DNA from: Eledone cirrhosa
Lineage: Eukaryota
NCBI GenBank assembly: GCA_964016885.1
Contig: OZ024762.1
Coordinates: 1 to 64,000 of the forward strand
DNA: 64,000 nucleotides
Direction: 5' to 3'
Shown: piece by piece, positions 3,776-38,215 of the stretch
How the letters are laid out: each line of letters starts with the position of its first letter
How positions within the stretch are numbered: the stretch's first letter is position 1
Made by a program: the position numbers and the translations under genes
The notes under the pieces: generated by a model
The model's input: the letters and a program-made list of their open reading frames with translations, nothing else
Databases searched by the model: none
Told to the model about the DNA's origin: nothing

Positions 3776-4769
3776 AATGTATATATTTATATATAATAAC
3801 TAGAAATTGATTAACATATATATAAACATGAATAATCACAGGAGATAATTTTTACAAGTGTGTAACCACACATAGCTAGGTAGGTAACTAAATAAAGTTG
3901 ACCAGAACTTCAAAAATAGATACCTTATAATATGATTAATCTTCCCTGTATATATTCCATTAAAGAAATATATTTCACCAATTAATCGGATGGTAAACCA
4001 CGGAAGTGGAGATTTGGATTTTCAACAAGGAAGAAATTTCCAGCTATCCGCGCTTACACTTCAAGTTCAAATCTGCGACTGGCTATTACCACGTGTTGTA
4101 TTTACTATAAATACACACATCATATTAGCTTCGTCCCAGTGGCATCATGAATAGGGTTATCGACAACTAGAAACAGCAGTTGACTCCTTAATTGTAGAGC
4201 TAACTCTGTTGAAAGGACTCGACTGCTGTTTCTAGAATGAAGAATTTATTGATGCAGGAGTTTTACTAACACGTGTTTCATTACAGTTGCCTAATGGCCT
4301 GCAAATCCTAGATTGTGATGTAATCCACTATTGGCATATGTACATCATCAGTGTAACCGCTGATGTAATACATTGAACTCAACAATATGGTGAGCTGCAT
4401 ATTTTTCTTGTTTGGCACATCCATTGAACATTACATTTATATATTTGTCAGAAATTTCCCTTTCAGTGCGTCACAAATATATAAATATATAAATAAACAC
4501 ACATTAACTGTTATGATAGTTTAGACAGAGAATAATGGATTAAGTGTGTAGAAGAATGAAAGAATAAGAGAATATATAGGTGAATAAATAACAGATACTC
4601 CGGTTAATGAAATAATTCGTCAATTTTTATTTAAACTAAAAAAAGTCCATTACAGAGAATCGTTATTGAGTCTAAGATAAAAATATGAATAAAGAATGGC
4701 TGGATTTGGAGCTGGATTTTGTTTCAAGTTAGAACCAAATTGGTGAAGATTGTATTGGAGTTGTACCAT

Positions 4770-4855
4770 CTGAAAATATAGAAAAATATATAATCATTGC
4801 TGTGGTTGTAGTGGTGGTGGTGGTGGAGGAGGAGGTGTTTGGGGTAGTGTTGTTG

Positions 4856-4887
<32 letters not shown>

Positions 4888-4927
4888 GGTGGTGGTTGTT
4901 GCTAAATAATAAAAACAAAATATTTAC
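4770..4927 (-). other. Predicted 3'UTR intron of the long paralogue (158 nt)
   Basis: Donor AAAG|gtaaat 40 nt after the stop, acceptor ttttctatattttcag|; mirrored in the other arm; AATAAA at 4626-4631 (minus). Confidence 0.65.
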
Positions 4928-4967
4928 CTTTGATCACGCGAAACCATTCCTGGTGAAATCTAACATT

Positions 4968-6959
4968 TCAACGACCAATAATTCCGTTATCGTCAGTGTG
5001 GTGAGTAGGGGTACTCCAGCGCCAGTTGGGGGTACTTCTACGCCAGTCTGGGGTACTTCTACGCCAGTCTGGGGTACTTCTTCGCCAGTCTGGGGTACTC
5101 CACCGCCAGTTGGGGGTACTTCTACGCCAGTCTGGGGTACTCCAGCGCCAGTCTGGAGTACTTCTACGCCAGTCTGGGGTACTTCTACGCCAGTCTGGGG
5201 TACTTCTACGCCAGTCTGGGGTACTTCTTCGCCAGTCTGGGGTACTCCAACGCCAGTTGGGGGTACTTCTACGCCAGTCTGGGGTACTTCTACGCCAGTC
5301 TGGGGTACTTCTTCGCCAGTCTGGGGTACTCCACCGCCAGTTGGGGGTACTTCTACGCCAGTCTGGGGTACTTCTACGCCAGTCTGGGGTACTCCAGCGC
5401 CAGTTGGGGGTACTTCTTCGCCAGTCTGGGGTACTTCTACGCCAGTCTGGGGTACTTCTACGCCAGTCTGGGGTACTCCAGCGCCAGTTGGGGGTACTTC
5501 TGCGCCAGTCTGGGGTACTTCTACGCCAGTCTGGGGTACTCCAACGCCAGTTGGGTGTACTTCTTCGCCAGTCTGGGGTACTCCAGCGCCAGTTGGGGGT
5601 ACTTCTTCGCCAGTCTGGGGTACTCCAACGCCAGTTGGGGGTACTTCTACGCCAGTCTGGGGTACTTCTACGCCAGTCTGGGGTACTTCTTCGCCAGTCT
5701 GGGGTACTCCACCGCCAGTTGGGGGTACTTCTACGCCAGTCTGGGGTACTTCTACGCCAGTCTGGGGTACTCCAGCGCCAGTTGGGGGTACTTCTTCGCC
5801 AGTCTGGGGTACTTCTACGCCAGTCTGGGGTACTTCTACGCCAGTCTGGGGTACTCCAGCGCCAGTTGGGGGTACTTCTGCGCCAGTCTGGGGTACTTCT
5901 ACGCCAGTCTGGGGTACTCCAACGCCAGTTGGGTGTACTTCTTCGCCAGTCTGGGGTACTCCAGCGCCAGTTGGGGGTACTTCTGCGCCAGTCTGGGGTA
6001 CTCCAGCGCCACCATGGGGAGTCAGAAGTGTATCTTGGGTAGTAGGGTGTTGTACCCCATCTGGGATAATTAGGGGTTTGACAAGGTGTTGTACCCCATC
6101 TGGGGTAGTCTGTGTAGCGAGGTGTGGTCCCCCATCTGGGGTAAACTGTGTATCTCGGGTAGGAGGGTGTTGTACCCCATCTGGGATAATTAGGGGTTTG
6201 ACAAGGTGTTGTACCCCATCTGGTGTAGCGAGGTGTGGTCCCCCATCTGGGGTAAACTGTGTATCTCGGGTAGGAGGGTGTTGTACCCCATCTGGGATAA
6301 TTAGGGGTTTGACAAGGTGTTGTACCCCATCTGGGGTAGTCTGTGTAGCGAGGTGTGGTCCCCCATCTTGGGTAAACTGTGTATCTCGGGTAGGAGGGTG
6401 TTGTACCCCATCTGGGATAATTAGGTGTTTGACAAGGTGTGGTCCCCCATCTGGGGTAATCTGTGTATCTCGGGTAGGAGGGTGTTGTACCCCATCTGGG
6501 GTAGTCTGTGTATCTCGGGTAGCGAGGTGTGGTTCCCCATCTTGGGTAGTCTGTGTATCTCGGGTAGCGAGGTGTGGTTCCCCATCTTGGGTAGTCGGTG
6601 TATCTCGGGTAACCACGTGTGGTTCCCCATTTGGGGTAGTCGGTGTAACTAGGAGTGCTCCACCCCCATCTGCTGGGGGAATCAGAAGTGTACCTTGGGT
6701 AGCGAGGTGTGGTACCCCTTCTGTAGTAGTCGGTGCTCCAATGTCTATAAGCCGACCTCTTCGACTTAGCGGCAGCATCATTTGGAAGGGAGGTAACAAA
6801 GCTAGCTCCACTGTCTTTCTTTTCCTCTGACTCTTTCAATATCTGTCCAGTAGGTGGAGCTACGGTGATGGCTACTTTGGCTTCACTTCCATTGAAGGTG
6901 AAATAGCAGAGAAGGACCGTTAGCAGGGAAGCCCCGCACAAGTAGAAGGAAGGTCTCAT
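4968..6959 (-). CDS. Secreted Trp/Arg/Tyr-rich tandem-repeat protein, long paralogue (663 aa)
   Basis: ATG at 6959; signal peptide MRPSFYLCGASLLTVLLCYFTFNGSEA; KSKR processing site; 15 WGTT-containing Tyr-rich units (4 with CQTPN); 47 x 21-bp heptads STP[D/N]WR[R/W]. Much of the repeat variation is at synonymous Arg/Pro third positions in this frame. TATA and Inr upstream. Confidence 0.88.
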   Translation of the reverse strand: MRPSFYLCGASLLTVLLCYFTFNGSEAKVAITVAPPTGQILKESEEKKDSGASFVTSLPNDAAAKSKRSAYRHWSTDYYRRGTTPRYPRYTSDSPSRWGWSTPSYTDYPKWGTTRGYPRYTDYPRWGTTPRYPRYTDYPRWGTTPRYPRYTDYPRWGTTPSYPRYTDYPRWGTTPCQTPNYPRWGTTPSYPRYTVYPRWGTTPRYTDYPRWGTTPCQTPNYPRWGTTPSYPRYTVYPRWGTTPRYTRWGTTPCQTPNYPRWGTTPSYPRYTVYPRWGTTPRYTDYPRWGTTPCQTPNYPRWGTTPYYPRYTSDSPWWRWSTPDWRRSTPNWRWSTPDWRRSTPNWRWSTPDWRRSTPDWRRSTPNWRWSTPDWRRSTPDWRRSTPDWRRSTPNWRWSTPDWRRSTPDWRRSTPNWRWSTPDWRRSTPDWRRSTPDWRRSTPNWRWSTPDWRRSTPNWRWSTPDWRRSTPNWRWSTPDWRRSTPDWRRSTPNWRWSTPDWRRSTPDWRRSTPDWRRSTPNWRWSTPDWRRSTPDWRRSTPNWRWSTPDWRRSTPDWRRSTPDWRRSTPNWRWSTPDWRRSTPDWRRSTPDWRRSTPDWRRSTPDWRWSTPDWRRSTPNWRWSTPDWRRSTPDWRRSTPDWRRSTPNWRWSTPTHHTDDNGIIGR

Positions 6960-7008
6960 AGCTGCTGGCAGTGGTTGTGTGTCTTTTCCAGAACACACCG
7001 TAACCAGG

Positions 7009-7045
7009 AACTGACGAAATATACTCAGAAGTGAGTCCTTTTATA
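7009..7045 (-). promoter_or_regulatory. TATA box (7039-7045) and Inr TCAGTT (7009-7014) of the minus paralogue
   Basis: TATAAAA ~30 nt upstream of a TCAKTY-type initiator, ~50 nt before the ATG. Confidence 0.75.
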
Positions 7046-7395
7046 AGGCAGAGCTTCTATTGATCCTTGCAGTACATGCACGCAGGTGTAACTAACAACT
7101 AAATCTATGAAGGTATGTATGTTTACACATATGTAGATAAACACCAGATCAGGTATATATATATATACATACCTATATATATATATATAGGTATGTATGT
7201 ATATATATATATATACATACCTGATCTGGTGTTTATCTACATATATATATACCTATATATATATATAGGTATGTATATATATATATACCTGATCTGGTGT
7301 TTATCTACATATGTGTAAACATACATACCTTCATAGATTTAGTTGTTAGTTACACCTGCGTGCATGTACTGCAAGGATCAATAGAAGCTCTGCCT

Positions 7396-7432
7396 TATAA
7401 AAGGACTCACTTCTGAGTATATTTCGTCAGTT
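7396..7432 (+). promoter_or_regulatory. TATA box (7396-7402) and Inr TCAGTT (7427-7432) of the plus paralogue
   Basis: Exact mirror of the minus-strand promoter; E-box CACCTG at 7353-7358. Confidence 0.75.
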
Positions 7433-7481
7433 CCTGGTTACGGTGTGTTCTGGAAAAGACACACAACCACTGCCAGCAGCT

Positions 7482-8597
7482 ATGAGACCTTCCTTCTACT
7501 TGTGCGGGGCTTCCCTGCTAACGGTCCTTCTCTGCTATTTCACCTTCAATGGAAGTGAAGCCAAAGTAGCCATCACCGTAGCTCCACCTACTGGACAGAT
7601 ATTGAAAGAGTCAGAGGAAAAGAAAGACAGTGGAGCTAGCTTTGTTACCTCCCTTCCAAATGATGCTGCCGCTAAGTCGAAGAGGTCGGCTTATAGACAT
7701 TGGAGCACCGACTACTACAGAAGGGGTACCACACCTCGCTACCCAAGGTACACTTCTGATTCCCCCAGCAGATGGGGGTGGAGCACTCCTAGTTACACCG
7801 ACTACCCCAAATGGGGAACCACACGTGGTTACCCGAGATACACCGACTACCCCAGATGGGGGACCACACCTCGCTACCCGAGATACACAGACTACCCCAG
7901 ATGGGGAACCACACCTCGCTACCCGAGATACACAGACTACCCCAGATGGGGTACAACACCCTCCTACCCGAGATACACTTCTGACTCCCCATGGTGGCGC
8001 TGGAGTACCCCAGACTGGCGAAGGAGTACCCCTGACTGGCGAAGGAGTACCCCTGACTGGCGGTGGAGTACCCCTGACTGGCATAGGAGTACCCCTGACT
8101 GGCGGTGGAGTACCCCTGACTGGCGTAGAAGTACCCCAGACTGGCGAAGAAGTACCCCAGACTGGCGGTGGAGTACCCCAGACTGGCGAAGAAGTACCCC
8201 AGACTGGCGGTGGAGTACCCCAGACTGGCGTAGAAGTACCCCCCACTGGCGCTGGAGTACCCCAGACTGGCGCAGAAGTACCCCCAACTGGCGCTGGAGT
8301 ACCCCAGACTGGCGCAGAAGTACCCCCCACTGGCGCTGGAGTACTCCAGACTGGCGCAGAAGTACCCCCAACTGGCGCTGGAGTACCCCAGACTGGCGCA
8401 GAAGTACCCCCAACTGGCGCTGGAGTACCCCAGACTGGCGCAGAAGTACCCCCCACTGGCGCTGGAGTACCCCAGACTGGCGCAGAAGTACCCCCAACTG
8501 GCGCTGGAGTACCCCAGACTGGCGCAGAAGTACCCCCAACTGGCGCTGGAGTACTCCTACTCACCACACTGACGATAACAGAATTATTGGTCGTTGA
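7482..8597 (+). CDS. Secreted Trp/Arg/Tyr-rich tandem-repeat protein, short paralogue (371 aa)
   Basis: ATG at 7482; same signal peptide and KSKR site as the minus copy; 4 x 15-aa YTDYPRWGTTPRYPR-type units; 26 heptads STP[D/N/H]W[R/H][R/W]; C-terminal tail STPTHHTDDNRIIGR*. Confidence 0.88.
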   Translation: MRPSFYLCGASLLTVLLCYFTFNGSEAKVAITVAPPTGQILKESEEKKDSGASFVTSLPNDAAAKSKRSAYRHWSTDYYRRGTTPRYPRYTSDSPSRWGWSTPSYTDYPKWGTTRGYPRYTDYPRWGTTPRYPRYTDYPRWGTTPRYPRYTDYPRWGTTPSYPRYTSDSPWWRWSTPDWRRSTPDWRRSTPDWRWSTPDWHRSTPDWRWSTPDWRRSTPDWRRSTPDWRWSTPDWRRSTPDWRWSTPDWRRSTPHWRWSTPDWRRSTPNWRWSTPDWRRSTPHWRWSTPDWRRSTPNWRWSTPDWRRSTPNWRWSTPDWRRSTPHWRWSTPDWRRSTPNWRWSTPDWRRSTPNWRWSTPTHHTDDNRIIGR

Positions 8598-8637
8598 AAT
8601 GTCGGATTTCACCAGGAATGGTTTCACGTGATCAAAG

Positions 8638-9494
8638 GTAAATATTTTGTTTTTATTATTTAAGGGCGGCTGGGTGGTGGATTGGCAGTATCGGTAGAGG
8701 GTCGGATGACATGCTTTGCAGCATAGAGTTACGGCCCTTTATGATCTGAGTTCAAAGCCCGCCGACGTTAACTTTGCCTTTTATCCTTACGGGGGAGATG
8801 AAATAAAGTACCAGTAATGCACTGGTGTCGATTTCATTGACTTCCTTTCCCTCAAAATTGTTAGCCTTGTGCCTATATAAAAAAACCATTTGAGTTACGG
8901 CCCTTGCCATTCTGAGTTCAAATCCCGCCGAGGTTAACTTTGCCTTTCATCCTTACGGGGTCGATAAAATAAAGTACCAGTAATACTCTGGGTATTTGGT
9001 GGCCTTGTGCCAAAAGTAGAAACAATTATTTTTATTTTTACTCAAACGGATCACCTCCGCCATCATCACCACCACCACCATTATCCTCATTATCATCGCC
9101 ATCATCATCATCAGAATCACCACCACCACCACCACACACACACCACCGCTGCCCCCACCTCCAACAACAACAACAACAACAACACTACCATAATCACCAC
9201 CAATTCCGACACCATCACCATCACCACCACCAACAACAACAGCAACACCATAAACACCACCAATTCCAACACCACCAACACACCACCATTACTACACCAC
9301 CACCACCAACAACAACAACAACACCATAAACTCCACCAATTCCAACACCGCCACCTCAACCACCACCACCACCACTACCAACAACAACAACAACAACGCC
9401 ACCACCAACAACAGCACCGACAACACTACCCCAAACACCTCCACCACCACCACCACAACCACAGCAATGATTATATATTTTTCTATATTTTCAG
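8638..9494 (+). other. Predicted 3'UTR intron of the short paralogue (857 nt)
   Basis: AAAG|gtaaat donor 40 nt after the stop and ttttcag| acceptor at 9494; enlarged by a SINE and a CAC/CAA microsatellite; AATAAA at 9839-9844. Confidence 0.65.
8663..9030 (+). mobile_element. tRNA-derived SINE (family A), one full copy plus a partial tandem copy
   Basis: tggattggcagtatcggtagag A-box region, gagttcaaa B-box, core gcctttcatcctt..ggggtcgataaaataaagtaccagt, tail gtagaaacaattatt; absent from the left arm. Confidence 0.85.
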
Positions 9495-9602
9495 ATGGTA
9501 CAACTCCAATACAATCTTCACCAATTTGGTTCTAACTTGAAACAAAATCCAGCTCCAAATCCAGCCATTCTTTATTTATATTTTTATCTTAGACTCAATA
9601 AC

Positions 9603-9787
9603 TGTTTCTACTTTAGGCACAAGGCCAGCAATTACCCAGTGCATTACTGGTACTTTATTTTATCGACCTCGTAAGGATGAAAGGCAAAGTCAACCTCGGC
9701 GGGACTTGAACTCAGATTGTAAAGGGACGTAACTATGCTGGAAAGCATGGTGTCCGACCCTCTACCGATACTGCCAATCCACTGCCC
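9603..9787 (-). mobile_element. SINE family A insertion with 18-bp target-site duplication
   Basis: tatcttagactcaataac flanks it at 9585-9602 and 9788-9805; the left arm carries a single empty site (~4662-4679). Confidence 0.92.
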
Positions 9788-27982: not shown

Positions 27983-28899
27983 CACACACACCAACACACA
28001 CACAAACACACACACACATGCACACACACACACATGCACACACACACACACATATGATAAGATGGTCTGTGATATTTGTTCCGGGTTTCTGCTCTCCTGT
28101 CAAGGCATTAAAGCAGTGCCGCTTCTGCCAGGAATTAGAACCGATAAATAAGAATGAGATCAGAACGAGGAAAGACCAATGGAATCATAATTTCCTTAGT
28201 CCAGCTCGGAGGTTGGACCACAACTTTTAAATCGATTCATCTTTATAATGTAATGTTAGACATGATTGTAATTATAATGGTATATAAGTCTAAGTAGAAG
28301 ACTAAGTCTTCAAACTTTGACAATGATGTCAGTTGTGTTACAGTGAAAGAAGATATAGTCTCTCTTTGTAAACATATAAAGCTGGTATTATTGCATTACT
28401 CCATCAGAGCAACGGCGGACATTTTGACAACGGAAAATAAATAGAAAAGAAAACCGAACTTTCTAGACAGGAAATGAAAGAGCAGTAGGTAAGAAACTCA
28501 GTACATCATATAAATATGATATATATAACGAGGTTTTACAGAAATAAATCTGGGAAACCTACGAGAATGGATTCAAAGCTGATTATAAGAAGCTTCGAAA
28601 GTTTCTTGGAGTCCACCATTTTGATTCGTCTGCAATGAGGTACAGTATGCATGTTTGTGTGTGCATGTGTGTGAGTGTGTGTGCGTGTGTGCGTGTGTGT
28701 GTTTGTAGTATTGAAGTCAGCAGTTATAGTATATTTATTACATATACATTCGAGTTATATGTATACACCTTTGTAAATAAATACATACACGTATATATAC
28801 ATACGTACGTACATAAATAAATACATACATGCACACATATATATATATTATAAGAATCGGAACCCGACGGCTGAGCTCTTGCCGTTTCAACAGCTAGCT

Positions 28900-29235
<336 letters not shown>

Positions 29236-29727
29236 TTAAAAGATATATATACATATATATACATATATATATACATATATATATATATACATATCTGTGA
29301 GTGCGCTCTCTCTCTCTATCTCTATCTCTCTCTCTATATATATATATAAGCGTAGGATAAGAGAAAATTCTATAGTATTATTCAAAGAGGAGCTTATTGA
29401 AAGGCGAAGCATGATGAAAGAAATAGGAAGAAATGGCGTGTAAAAGTATTTATCACGTGTTTATCACGTGTTTACTCCACCGTGTAAATAGATAAACTGC
29501 TGATTACCTGTTAGAAATAAGGTTCACTGATGAATAACAATTAATAGCAATGTAACTTCTTACAAGCGGAAACCCGTTTTGTTAATATATCGATCTATCA
29601 ATAGATTTATCAATCGATCTATCTATATATCTCTCTCCCTTTCTCTCTCCCCCTCTTTCTCTCGCTATATACATATATATTTATATATATGTATATTATG
29701 GTCTCTTCGAATATAGACGTGTGAGGG

Positions 29728-29790
<63 letters not shown>

Positions 29791-30437
29791 TCACACATAT
29801 ATATATAAAAATATATATACATATATACATACATATAAATATATATATATATACATACTTATACACACACATATATATATATATATATGAATGGTAACTG
29901 AAGCCAGAGAAAGGAAAGTATCTATCAGCAGTCGTTGATATTTTTTGCTATTTATGTCTTTAGATGTGATAATATGATTAGTATACGGTTCATACAATCG
30001 TAGTGTGTGAGTGAGTCTGTGTGAGAGTGTGTGTGTGTGAGTGAGTGTGTGTGTGTGTCTGTCACTGTGTGTGTGTGAGGGTGTGCAATGGCTGTCACTA
30101 ATAACAGTTAGATAATCAGATAAGTCTATATTACGTTAACACAACAATGTTATAAAGGGGAGGTAATTGTGTTATATCTCACCTTATCGACATTCCACAA
30201 ACGATCTCTTGTCAAACTATATCAGGAATGTCACCGGTTTTATCTCACTTTCATCTGTTACTTACTGTCTGGATGTTTGTGTGTATGTGTGCGTGTGATT
30301 GTGTGTGTGAGAGAGTGTGTGTGTGGTTATGTCTGTGTGTGTATGTGAGTATATATATAGACAGATATATATAGATTGATTAGTTATTTATATGTATATA
30401 TATATATCAATATATATATATCAATATATATATATAA

Positions 30438-30533
<96 letters not shown>

Positions 30534-30746
30534 GTATGTGTGTGTATGTGCGCGTAGTTGTGCAGTACCAAGATCTACCGTCAATGGTCAACATATGTAA
30601 TCTAAATTATAAAAGAGAGGTTTTCGTGCCAAAAGAAGTTAAGACGAAAAGACTGAGAAAACCTAAAAATGGGTCTTGTACAGCATATGTCTGGTTTACG
30701 TTTGGTCACGTAAATATCACATACATATATATATATACATACATAC

Positions 30747-30873
<127 letters not shown>

Positions 30874-30904
30874 CACACACACACATACACATACATACAC
30901 ATAC

Positions 30905-30935
<31 letters not shown>

Positions 30936-31049
30936 CATATATATATATACATATATATATATACATATATATATGTATATATATATATATATATATATAC
31001 ACATACATATATATATATACATATATATGTATATATATATATACACATA

Positions 31050-31101
<52 letters not shown>

Positions 31102-31106
31102 GATAC

Positions 31107-31139
<33 letters not shown>

Positions 31140-31153
31140 TACAGATATATATG

Positions 31154-31204
<51 letters not shown>

Positions 31205-31290
31205 GTATATATATACGTTATTCCGGGTTGAATCGGAGGTAACCACAGTAAGTAAGGTACTCAATACATAGCAGAGTATAACAGTTTTAA

Positions 31291-31410
31291 TATAGATGAG
31301 ATTCTACAGGACTAGAACTGTTTCATTCATTTGAAATCATCAGGAATCTCTTGATTCCTGATGATTTCAAATGAATGAAACAGTTCTAGTCCTGTAGAAT
31401 CTCATCTATA
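31291..31410. repeat. ~58-bp-arm perfect fold-back hairpin (related copies at 52793-52885 and 41372-41420)
   Basis: atagatgagattctacaggactagaactgtttcattcatttgaaatcatcaggaatc, a tctt loop, then the exact reverse complement. Confidence 0.9.
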
Positions 31411-31452
<42 letters not shown>

Positions 31453-31470
31453 ATATATATATATACACAC

Positions 31471-31629
<159 letters not shown>

Positions 31630-31717
31630 CAGATATACATGTGTGTGTATGTATGGGTGTATATCGTGTACTCTGTTGAGTATGGTCTAACCAGTTTCTA
31701 ACTTAATCCGTCCTGAT

Positions 31718-31767
<50 letters not shown>

Positions 31768-31875
31768 TCACGCAAGAAATAGATCACCAATGTTCTACAA
31801 TAAATACATTATTTGATTTACATATGTTTCATTCTCTAAAGAGGAAAAAAAAGAAAAAAGTTAAGTGCTTCTTAC

Positions 31876-32551
31876 CGCCTCTCCAGATTGGTTTGACATT
31901 CTCGCGGGGTCCGTTTCTATAGGCTGGACGAGTTCTCGCAAGCTTCTTCTCCTTGTTAGCCGGGATCAACGGGAATCTCGTTGCTTGAGGACGCTGTTTC
32001 GGTTTCCACCAGGGGCGTTTCGTGGTCGTCATTGATTCTGCTCTTCCACTCGACCAATTTTTAGAAGTGCTCCTGCCGCCATTTTCTTTGTTACGACGGT
32101 AATAATAATAATAGTTATTACTACGATTATTACCACCTACACTACCTCCACCACCACGATTATTGTCATGATCATGATCATCATCGCCGTCATCACCAGT
32201 ACCGATTGATTTTCTATCATTATCAGATTTTCTCGCACCGGCCGCATCGCTGTTTCTTGGGGTCACCGTATCATTGCTACCAACGTTGTTATTACTTCCA
32301 ACTAACCAACTACAGTCGGCCTTCTTCGGCCAATCACATGTCTGGGTGACTGTATTAAAGTTTAGTTCATCTGGACAGAAGAACTGGTAAAGTTTGCCAC
32401 CCGTGCAACGTATGAAAAGGTTTGGTTTCGTCGGATGACAACGATATTTCGGATCATCTTTACAAGGGAGTCTAGCCCCGTAACTTAGTAACAGGGAAGC
32501 TGAGAAGTACACCAGATGAAACACTATCGCGTTTCTCATTGTTCCGTTCAT
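31876..32551 (-). CDS. Chitin deacetylase, exon 1 (signal peptide, CBM14/peritrophin-A domain, low-complexity linker)
   Basis: Hydrophobic N-terminus (start ATG at 32551 or 32539); CKDDPKYRCHPTKPNLFIRCTGGKLYQFFCPDELNFNTVTQTCDWPKKADC; phase-1 donor GGCG|gtaag joins in frame to exon 2, giving ~550 aa. Confidence 0.88.
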
Positions 32552-32870
32552 ATTTCTTCTTCGTCTTCTTCTATATTTCGGTCTTCTTCTTACTTCTGTC
32601 TCTCTTTCTTTCAGCTATAGGAATTCTTTACCTTCACTCTAAACCTGTCTTTCTCTCTCTCACTGTCTTTAGCAATGTATCAGGGTCTTTTGCTGTCGGT
32701 TTCTTTCTCAATGTATGTCCATTAGAAAGTAAAGTTCAGGAAATATATACAGACAGAGACAGAGACAGAGTCACAGAGACAGATATATATATATATACGT
32801 GTGTGTGTATCTTTGCAAAGTCTGTGTTTCCTTTCTTGTTCGTATATCTATAGGTATATGTGTCCGTACG

Positions 32871-36978: not shown

Positions 36979-37946
36979 GATTTCTTTATTGGCCACAAGG
37001 GCTGACACCAAGAAAAACATTACAGACGGCACAGGACGGTACGATGTGAGTTTTGTGCGTGTAAAGATTTTTATTATTTATATAAGAAAAGAAAAAAAAA
37101 GGACATAGAAACGTATATATATATAAACAATAAAAATGAAAATTGAAACAATGAAAAAATTCTCCAATAGGGGGAAACCTCCGAGGGTTACTCGTAGCGA
37201 AAACCACACAAAAGACCACGGCCACCCTGACCACCAGGGCAAGCGCCCTCTCTCAATTTTTCCATTTCTCAAACTACAGGCGTATATTCAGAGCGGTCCC
37301 GTTCACTCGGACCATTCTCGCTACATTCCCCCACCTCTCAACAAACTTGCTAGAAGGCAGCACTTGCCTCTCCACCCTGATTTTCCTCTTCAAGTGAAAC
37401 TTGAAAAAGTTAATTAGGGATTCGCCGAAGCAGAAAGTGTCTGTCTTTAACCCTTTCAATCTTGTCCACCACACAATCTCTTTCGCCATGGCCACCAGGA
37501 AGATGAAAACCGCCTGCCCTTCCTCCTCGAAGGAAGACGGCGAGACCATCTGCACAATGGACTCAGTCGGTAACTGGATCAGTCCTACACGCGACAGCAA
37601 CTGTTCGACATAGCTCCACAAGTCAGCAATGCTCGGGCACTGAACGAGTGCGTGCACGACAGTTTCGTCGCTCTGCGCGCATCTCGGACAGGCTCGGCTG
37701 ACGGCACTTCCGTGCCTGTAGAGCTTATCTCGAACCGGCAACGCTCCCCGGTAGCACTGCAAGGCCAGAGATTTTTGGAAGTTATCCATAGGCCCTGGGC
37801 TGAAAGTTCTCCGGAAGAGAGCAAACAGCTGATCTTCTTCGACACCCAGGATCTCTCCGAGAACGTCGTCGCTCTTCCTCTCCACTAGTCCTCTATAGAA
37901 CGCCGAGGTGGATGTTCCACCGATACTGGTGCCCAGCTGGCAGAGG
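36979..37946 (-). mobile_element. Tx1/L1-clade LINE 3' fragment
   Basis: QCYRGALPVRDKLYRHG...CPRCAQSDETVVHALVQCP...LKRKIRVERQ (zf-RVT region). Confidence 0.85.
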
Positions 37947-37961
37947 GCAATAATAATAATA

Positions 37962-38215
37962 GTGATCACAATATTGCGGCAAAAAAATTTGACAAGCTAC
38001 GAAAGTATAAAAATCTGCTTATTGAAATTGAGAAGATGTGGCACCTCAAGGCTGTTACAATACCAGGGATTGTGGGAGGACTGGGAATGATCAAGAAAGG
38101 ATCAGAACAATATTTGCGAATGATTCCTGGTTTATCCTCTCTGCATCAGGTGCAAAAAATTGTTTTGACTGGTACTGCACACGTATTCAGAAGAGCACTA
38201 TCTCTGTAAGATTGA
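37962..38215 (+). mobile_element. R4/Dong-like RLE retrotransposon 3' fragment
   Basis: Translation IVGGLGMIKKGSEQYLRMIPGLSSLHQVQKIVLTGTAHVFRRALSL* resembles the R4/Dong C-terminus; adjoins a TAA repeat. Confidence 0.6.

Follow-up and report, generated by a model that had tools for sequence, protein, structure and literature searches.

A two-copy gene of Eledone cirrhosa encoding a predicted secreted protein of Trp/Arg-rich heptads

At the beginning of a scaffold of the Eledone cirrhosa assembly (GCA_964016885.1, contig OZ024762.1) lie two open reading frames (ORFs) whose predicted products consist largely of tandem heptads rich in Trp and Arg, which raises the question of whether these arrays are translated at all and, if so, what such a protein could do for an octopus. 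Here, we analysed the window, i.e. the first 64 kb of this scaffold (C23, 30.8 Mb, in an assembly of 3.0 Gb), following up an original prediction that had been made from the DNA letters alone and had proposed two intact ORFs with 47 and 26 heptads, belonging to an unrecognised family of secreted proteins. Both ORFs proved intact, coding for 663 (copy A) and 371 amino acids (aa; copy B), and the pattern S-T-P-(D/N/H)-W-(R/H)-(R/W) is kept in all 47 + 26 units. Judged by sequence, they appear to represent a two-copy gene with a new repeat unit and a new architecture, found so far in one genome, whose product is likely secreted and, by analogy, most plausibly functions in the way of cationic/aromatic repeat proteins secreted by molluscs.

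Are the arrays read in the proposed frame? We counted each minor allele per column once, both in the heptads and in the 8-codon Tyr-Pro-Arg-Trp-Gly core of the Tyr/Arg/Pro block (hereafter Tyr block) that precedes them. Silent alleles made up 8/12 in the heptads against 0.21 expected (binomial p 7e-4) and 6/8 in the Tyr-block core against 0.25 expected (p 0.004), p values that serve only as a guide because repeat units descend from each other. One of the 12 heptad alleles scores as a stop relative to the commonest codon; in the real units, this change is always paired with a second one yielding Trp. Furthermore, TGA occurs at the Arg/Trp codon in none of the 73 units, and the CpG of the Arg codon is retained in 72 of them. 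These observations support selection on the proposed frame as a coding frame. That we are instead looking at a minisatellite or a dead gene open by chance, or that the +1 frame with its Val-Pro-Gln-Thr-Gly type repeats (ORF 7660-8631) is the translated one, seems very improbable and is already largely refuted: GC-rich repeats easily remain open, and the +1 frame does so for 323 and 615 codons, but its silent alleles amount to only 2/12 in the heptads and 0/8 in the Tyr-block core, and its ORF has neither a signal peptide nor a Pfam match. Apart from the codon usage just described, the proposed frame begins in both copies at the first ATG after the TATA box and initiator (Inr)-like motif, with no upstream ATG, and opens with a predicted signal peptide. 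The original claim that much of the variation is synonymous only in this frame thus holds among the open frames, but not beyond them, as the antisense frame sharing the wobble base scores 8/12 and 7/8, yet carries 38 and 16 stops (frames and stops matched by hand).

The precursor predicted from this frame is ordered into signal peptide, pro-region, Tyr block, heptad array, and a 15-aa tail (Table 1). Its first 68 residues are identical in both copies: a basic start is followed by a hydrophobic stretch whose Kyte-Doolittle hydropathy (9-residue mean) reaches 2.5, a small-residue cleavage pattern recognised by eye near residue 27, and a 41-aa pro-region (net charge -1 over residues 28-64) ending in Lys-Ser-Lys-Arg at residue 68, in line with the signal peptide and KSKR-terminated pro-region proposed before, the former being predicted here by hydropathy. 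The TATA box of copy B at 7396 (mirrored at 7039 in copy A) is followed 31 nt downstream by the Inr-like TCAGTT at 7427 (mirror 7009), and the TATA, Inr, intron and polyadenylation signals previously claimed are all borne out as sequence motifs. By the 50-55 nt rule, an intron very near the stop codon is expected to escape nonsense-mediated decay, and the predicted intron, 40 nt past the stop in the 3' untranslated region (UTR), should therefore do so.

The predicted mature chains have an isoelectric point (pI) of 11.4-11.5, a net charge of +71 (copy A) and +32 (copy B), and a composition dominated by few residues, with 13.9/15.8% Trp, 19% Arg, 21-22% aromatics and 42-43% Pro+Ser+Thr. Met and Glu are absent, Lys occurs once, Leu+Ile+Val make up 0.7-0.8%, Gly 2.6-3.4%, His 1-2%, charged residues 27-28% (28-31% with His) and polarisable residues 40-43%. 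Copy A contains four Cys and copy B none, Cys-Cys pairs and N-x-S/T sites are lacking in both, and the C-mannosylation motif Trp-x-x-Trp is found once per chain. In the heptad blocks alone, Trp reaches 19-21%. Position 7 carries Trp for Arg in 27/73 units, never Lys, and goes together with position 4: Asp+Arg pairs occur 46 times, Asn or His+Trp 22 times, Asp+Trp five times, and Asn or His+Arg not at all. Net charge is +1 in 67/73 heptads, 0 in six and +2 in none, and this near constancy would be more readily explained by tuned charge and stickers than by cut sites under conservation. In silico, trypsin would release only 8-9 distinct peptides of at least 7 aa. AlphaFold2, run on the single sequence, returned no fold (mean predicted local distance difference test score 36), which is weakly consistent with disorder.

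Table 1. Coordinates of the features of both copies in the window
Feature	Position	Strand	Basis or remark
Copy A, left arm of inverted duplication	4234..7209	-	blastn, left versus right window part, 97.8-98.8% in unique stretches
Copy B, right arm of inverted duplication	7234..10238	+	blastn and arm alignment
Palindrome centre, (AT)n tract with 68-bp tandem duplication	7154..7312	.	
Copy A coding sequence, single exon, 663 aa	4968..6959	-	ORF intact
Copy A predicted signal peptide, residues ~1-27	6879..6959	-	hydropathy, inferred
Copy A pro-region, Lys-Arg convertase-type site at end	6756..6878	-	cleavage inferred
Copy A Tyr/Arg/Pro block, 251 aa, 16% Tyr, 4 Cys	6003..6755	-	
Copy A array, 47 Trp/Arg heptads, exact 18-unit internal duplication	5016..6002	-	
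Copy A TATA box and Inr-like motif	7009..7045	-	motifs
Copy A predicted 3'-UTR intron, GT..AG, 40 nt past stop	4770..4927	-	motifs
Copy B coding sequence, single exon, 371 aa	7482..8597	+	ORF intact
Copy B predicted signal peptide and pro-region, identical to copy A	7482..7685	+	
Copy B Tyr/Arg/Pro block, 106 aa, 17% Tyr, no Cys	7686..8003	+	
Copy B array, 26 Trp/Arg heptads	8004..8549	+	
Copy B TATA box and Inr-like motif	7396..7432	+	motifs
Copy B predicted 3'-UTR intron, enlarged by dispersed-repeat (short interspersed nuclear element (SINE)-like) insertions and CAC/CAA tract	8638..9494	+	motifs
SINE-like insertion with 18-bp target-site duplication, 3' UTR, copy B only	9585..9805	+	
Copy B AATAAA candidates 9839, 10222 (mirrors 4626, 4245)	9839..10227	+	motifs

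Is this a family of genes? Both ORFs sit on the arms of a single inverted duplication found by blastn (4234-7209 versus 7234-10238), arranged head-to-head as a compact palindromic gene pair, and hence amount to two copies of a single gene, which do not yet make a family. The original prediction had mentioned neither this palindrome nor the charge coupling within heptads, nor the myticalin-like words treated below. The copies share an identical inner stretch of 536 nt, made up of 345 nt from the start of the coding sequence plus 191 nt of 5' UTR and promoter, whereas the outer parts have diverged, the 3' UTR differing at 9/573 nt (Fisher p 0.004 against the identical inner part; p 0.12 if only non-coding sequence is compared, 0/191 inner versus 3' UTR). 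This hints at conversion or constraint near the palindrome centre. The second copy would stem from a local foldback duplication, with each array turning over on its own thereafter; the arrays comprise 8 and 12 unit types, only four of which are common to both, and the motif is kept despite 47 versus 26 units.

Inverted arms close to a scaffold end could also be two alleles of one gene that were joined head-to-head by the assembly, which would affect copy number only. We consider this unlikely, and the existence of two real paralogues correspondingly likely. The position of the window at the start of its scaffold, the self-complementary AT tract at the centre and the 3' UTR divergence, which could be allelic, are all compatible with a mis-join, and so is the left-arm junction at 4234, for which the 16 listed contig pieces (283 more lie beyond these) include no bridge and at which one contig with copy-A letters continues into other sequence. 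Against it, the 4.2 kb outside the left arm match the 94 kb outside the right arm through dispersed repeats only, without collinearity, the window is free of N gaps, and arrays and insertions differ widely between the arms. Of the two sequencing runs of one sample, one yielded short-read contigs with copy-A letters and the other contigs with copy-B letters, which shows that both variants are present as DNA; the sample may be the assembly's own, and its reads behave as genomic DNA, without joints. Over 4150-5030, these reads contain a dispersed repeat at a depth >15,000, and cover is zero at 4810-5030.

The end of the left arm is marked by a 71-nt near-perfect hairpin (4166-4236; -37.6 kcal/mol as RNA), a very high-copy repeat in the short reads (depth 15,000-42,000 versus 5-7) and likely an element of the miniature inverted-repeat transposable element type. 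A second small foldback-like structure was recognised by eye at 10946-11440, where two similar ORF pieces in opposite orientation surround an (AT)n tract. Elsewhere in the genome, two hemocyanin gene clusters are inverted relative to each other (C26:21933048-22016816), with three more in tandem on scaffold C1; inverted duplications are thus not unique to the Trp/Arg repeat locus. In total, 39 matches to the molluscan hemocyanin domain were counted, and three clusters contain seven units each. Together with the protocadherin-type matches given below, these hemocyanins mark the genome as that of a coleoid, and having seven units instead of eight points to an octopod.

Does the protein have relatives? 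Neither copy matched any Pfam family at E up to 0.1, and Rfam gave no match. Eight PDB sequences scored at E 0.28-0.98, five of them the heptad tail of the RNA polymerase II large subunit, and were rejected as composition. Within 5.8 billion protein clusters, searched in three length windows, we found no homologue of the whole of copy B (204-650 aa, 6508 candidates) nor of residues 1-170 (30-203 aa, 544 candidates; 651-2000 aa, 811 candidates). A search of 1.84 billion representative sequences yielded 733 hits at E up to 0.001; the best 150 of these, to which our statements apply, all centre on repeats, none having its best stretch before residue 85, none with the Tyr-block core motif, and none with more than 10.4% Trp. 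Eight of these 150 that were looked at proved to be unrelated repeats (ankyrin, peritrophin-like and others). Two hits of the same search (P0046 and P0112) are secreted proteins of no relation to ours in which Thr-Pro repeats contain Trp, and one of them is peritrophin-like with two Cys-rich ends; Trp/Thr/Pro repeats thus recur in secreted proteins of other animals. In the ESM Atlas, residues 1-170 had no match, and the best score of 0.76 belonged to a polysialoglycoprotein-like entry, kept as a lead only. The protein was therefore rightly called unrecognised as far as these searches extend. The word family, however, was an overstatement: a search of the animal's own genome with the N-terminal 114 residues led back to these two near-identical loci and nowhere else (2 of 10 candidates scored), and the protein searches found no match in other species. 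No further heptad copies occur in the next 40 kb, the heptad block not having been searched genome-wide. As gene callers often mask such repeats, being missing from protein sets does not show that the gene is missing from other cephalopods. Likewise, no description of the protein was found in the literature, with cephalopod supplementary tables and most subscription journals lying outside the search.

What, then, could such a protein do? The original prediction had named a biomaterial, an optical or a defence role. The reading we favour, tentatively and at somewhat less than an even chance, is drawn from analogy: a convertase-matured, disordered, secreted Arg/aromatic block copolymer that would coacervate into an extracellular cement or coat. 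A furin-type convertase would trim the precursor at residue 68, removing the pro-region, and the mature chain would stay disordered and condense via cation-pi and pi-pi contacts in seawater salt. The heptad block would act as a chain of regularly spaced Arg/Trp stickers, the Tyr block would serve cross-linking through 3,4-dihydroxyphenylalanine (Dopa) or dityrosine, and Ser/Thr would probably carry O-glycans. Egg-string cement, chorion, sucker or gut cuticle, spermatophore and mucus are candidate sites. Precedents for several of these steps are described in earlier reports: a recombinant repeat of the mussel protein MFP-1 self-coacervates at 0.7 M NaCl or more via pi-cation contacts (PMC9999432), adhesive precursors bear signal peptides, and modified Trp and Thr serve in Pvfp-1 (PMC4275877), the size of reflectin assemblies tracks the net charge density of their cationic linkers (PMC11931252), and octopus oviducal glands make egg cement (PMC8976471).

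Among secreted molluscan materials, mussel foot proteins are reminiscent of the protein in being basic, in the Tyr/Pro tandem repeats of MFP-1, the hydroxy-Arg of MFP-3 and the Trp/Thr modifications of Pvfp-1, and in pi-cation coacervation; they differ in their repeat unit, as the heptad protein uses Arg instead of Lys, has a single Trp-x-x-Trp per chain and gave no sequence match. The cuttlefish egg-case proteins SepECP1 and SepECP2 are likewise cephalopod, secreted and strongly cationic, and form a pair with an identical signal peptide. However, they possess three Cys-rich domains, 50-55 Cys, N-glycosylation sites and no repeats (PMC4500399), whereas the chains described here are nearly all repeat, with 0-4 Cys and no N-glycosylation site. 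Histidine-rich beak proteins and suckerins are also cephalopod modular low-complexity materials, the former with aromatic-driven coacervation. According to a review, beak proteins are built of Gly-His-Gly-X-X pentapeptides with a pI of ~6, and suckerins of Pro-flanked Ala/Val/Thr/Ser/His modules alternating with Gly/Leu/Tyr modules (PMC11931252). Here, in contrast, Gly-His-Gly-X-X is absent, pI is 11.4-11.5 with 1-2% His, and neither suckerin module occurs, with ~3% Gly and <1% Leu+Ile+Val. Defining features of beak proteins and suckerins, and of the reflectins treated below, are lacking in both copies, as had been predicted.

Several points weigh against a cement or coat. Positions 4 and 7 may be coupled only through descent from two ancestral unit types; the 33 and 14 Arg-Arg pairs of copies A and B are possible convertase sites, and cutting there would destroy the polymer; the Tyr and Trp content fits antimicrobial peptides equally well, given the words shared with group A myticalins; and Pfam reports no chitin-binding domain (CBM14 and similar) in either copy at E up to 0.1. 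Nor does a neighbouring chitin deacetylase help, as a chitin-related role argued from it would rest on proximity only and was rejected. This two-exon-looking gene (26705-32614, minus strand) lies 18 kb from copy B and combines a signal-peptide-like start and CBM_14 (E 1.4e-8) within 31832-32551 with a polysaccharide deacetylase domain (E 1.8e-5) within 26708-27745; five further matches to its family occur elsewhere in the genome, four of them clustered on C1, in a search that missed the gene in the window.

The Arg-Arg pairs also invite the reading as a polyprotein, cut into many Trp peptides of 5-12 residues acting as pheromones or local signals, which we regard as improbable. It would account for the predicted signal peptide, the Lys-Arg site and tandem units with that many dibasic pairs, and in-silico cutting of copy A indeed gives 17 plus 14 short units. 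However, it leaves the Tyr block unexplained, and in 27/73 units the second Arg is replaced by Trp through a two-base change. Precursors of amidated neuropeptides, e.g. the Wamide types, typically carry Gly before dibasic sites and Lys-Arg spacers. The mature chains here, by contrast, have no Gly before any dibasic site, hence no amidation, and contain no Lys-Arg, Arg-Lys or Lys-Lys. Such a pattern, in which Arg-Arg never alternates with Lys-Arg and Arg-Trp often takes its place, would fit a cation-pi function better than processing.

A stronger contender, although still doubtful, is an antimicrobial role: as a secreted polycation or as a precursor, the protein would have converged on myticalins A and D and on Trp/Arg-rich peptides, and its Tyr block or fragments released by proteolysis would target bacteria in egg coats or mucus. 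Myticalins, linear cationic antimicrobial peptides of Mytilus mussels, are molluscan as well, with a signal peptide, a Lys-Arg site, Pro-Arg-Tyr/Pro-Arg-Trp words and a Trp/Thr-rich subgroup; their mature region has a pI >11 and >10% Arg, with Pro-Arg-Tyr repeats in group A (PMC5577615). In the present chains, Pro-Arg-Tyr occurs 15 and 8 times and Pro-Arg-Trp 13 and 3 times in copies A and B, respectively, and their charges of +71 and +32 compare with +70 and +42 given for the antibacterial SepECPs (PMC4500399). Yet the myticalin order, i.e. signal peptide, a peptide of 23-42 aa, Lys-Arg and an anionic extension of 35-75 aa (PMC5577615), is reversed here: a near-neutral propeptide stands at the N-terminus, the cationic part (303-595 aa) is 10-20 times longer and includes the Trp/Arg heptad array, and a 15-aa tail takes the place of the anionic C-terminal extension. 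Moreover, myticalin genes are split into three exons by one intron in the 5' UTR and another, of phase 1, within the extension (PMC5577615), as opposed to one coding exon with a predicted intron only in the 3' UTR, and no sequence match exists. These differences in precursor order, size and gene structure point to convergence, not membership. Furthermore, dibasic sites are lacking inside the Tyr block over 100-245 aa, cutting at Arg-Arg followed by trimming of the heptads would leave neutral or acidic pieces, and Vibrio anguillarum was inhibited by none of the seven tested myticalins, which the authors linked partly to salt (PMC5577615). An antimicrobial role would be compatible in part with the cement or coat, because SepECPs are both structural and antibacterial.

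An optical role, as a Met-free secreted counterpart of reflectin forming high-index granules or layers, appears more improbable than peptide processing. Reflectins are cephalopod proteins rich in Arg, Tyr and Trp, almost devoid of Leu, Ile and Val, and likely disordered and charge-tuned; the review gives Met-Asp-X5 repeats, a conserved N-terminal domain, Leu+Ile+Val <2%, many polarisable residues and charged residues >35% (PMC11931252). The mature chains share part of this composition (Leu+Ile+Val 0.7-0.8%, polarisable residues 40-43%), and each Arg-Arg-Ser-Thr unit (32 and 13 in the two copies) could be a charge-neutralising phosphosite. However, both precursors lack Met-Asp-X5 motifs and the N-terminal domain, the mature chains contain no Met, and their charged residues reach 27-31% as opposed to >35%. 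Reflectin platelets lie inside iridophores and leucophores, while the present precursor is predicted to enter the secretory path; its predicted signal peptide thus argues against a reflectin-type intracellular role.

Taking the favoured cement or coat one step further, the protein may form an octopod-specific, Met-free and Dopa-independent Arg/Trp coacervate, in which the in-step Asp/Arg to Asn/Trp swap would keep one or two Trp and a fixed +1 per unit, and which would serve as an octopus material (egg-string cement, cuticle or extracellular high-index layer) and be antimicrobial too; we consider this combination unlikely as a whole. Reflectins, beak proteins and suckerins each seeded a field of biomaterials, and no cephalopod material protein named in the surveyed reviews and searches is built on an Arg/Trp heptad. 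With seven residues, 19-21% Trp and a near-fixed charge, the unit is short enough for direct synthesis, and the protein offers a concrete candidate for octopus egg cement and cuticles.

Side observations include a single-exon ankyrin-repeat ORF of ~306 aa on locus L005 (4099-5019 of that locus, minus strand; Ank_2, E 3e-22) and, in the window, fragments of the long interspersed nuclear element type at 15816-16694 (+), 37274-37996 (-), 20658-21152 (-) and 12029-12805 (+). RVT_1 (E 1.4e-8) and zf-RVT (E 1.4e-7) were matched among these fragments; 12029-12805 has no Pfam match, and 20658-21152 is zf-RVT-like by eye. Genome-wide, at least 121 protocadherin-type matches were counted among 150 of 255 candidates scored.

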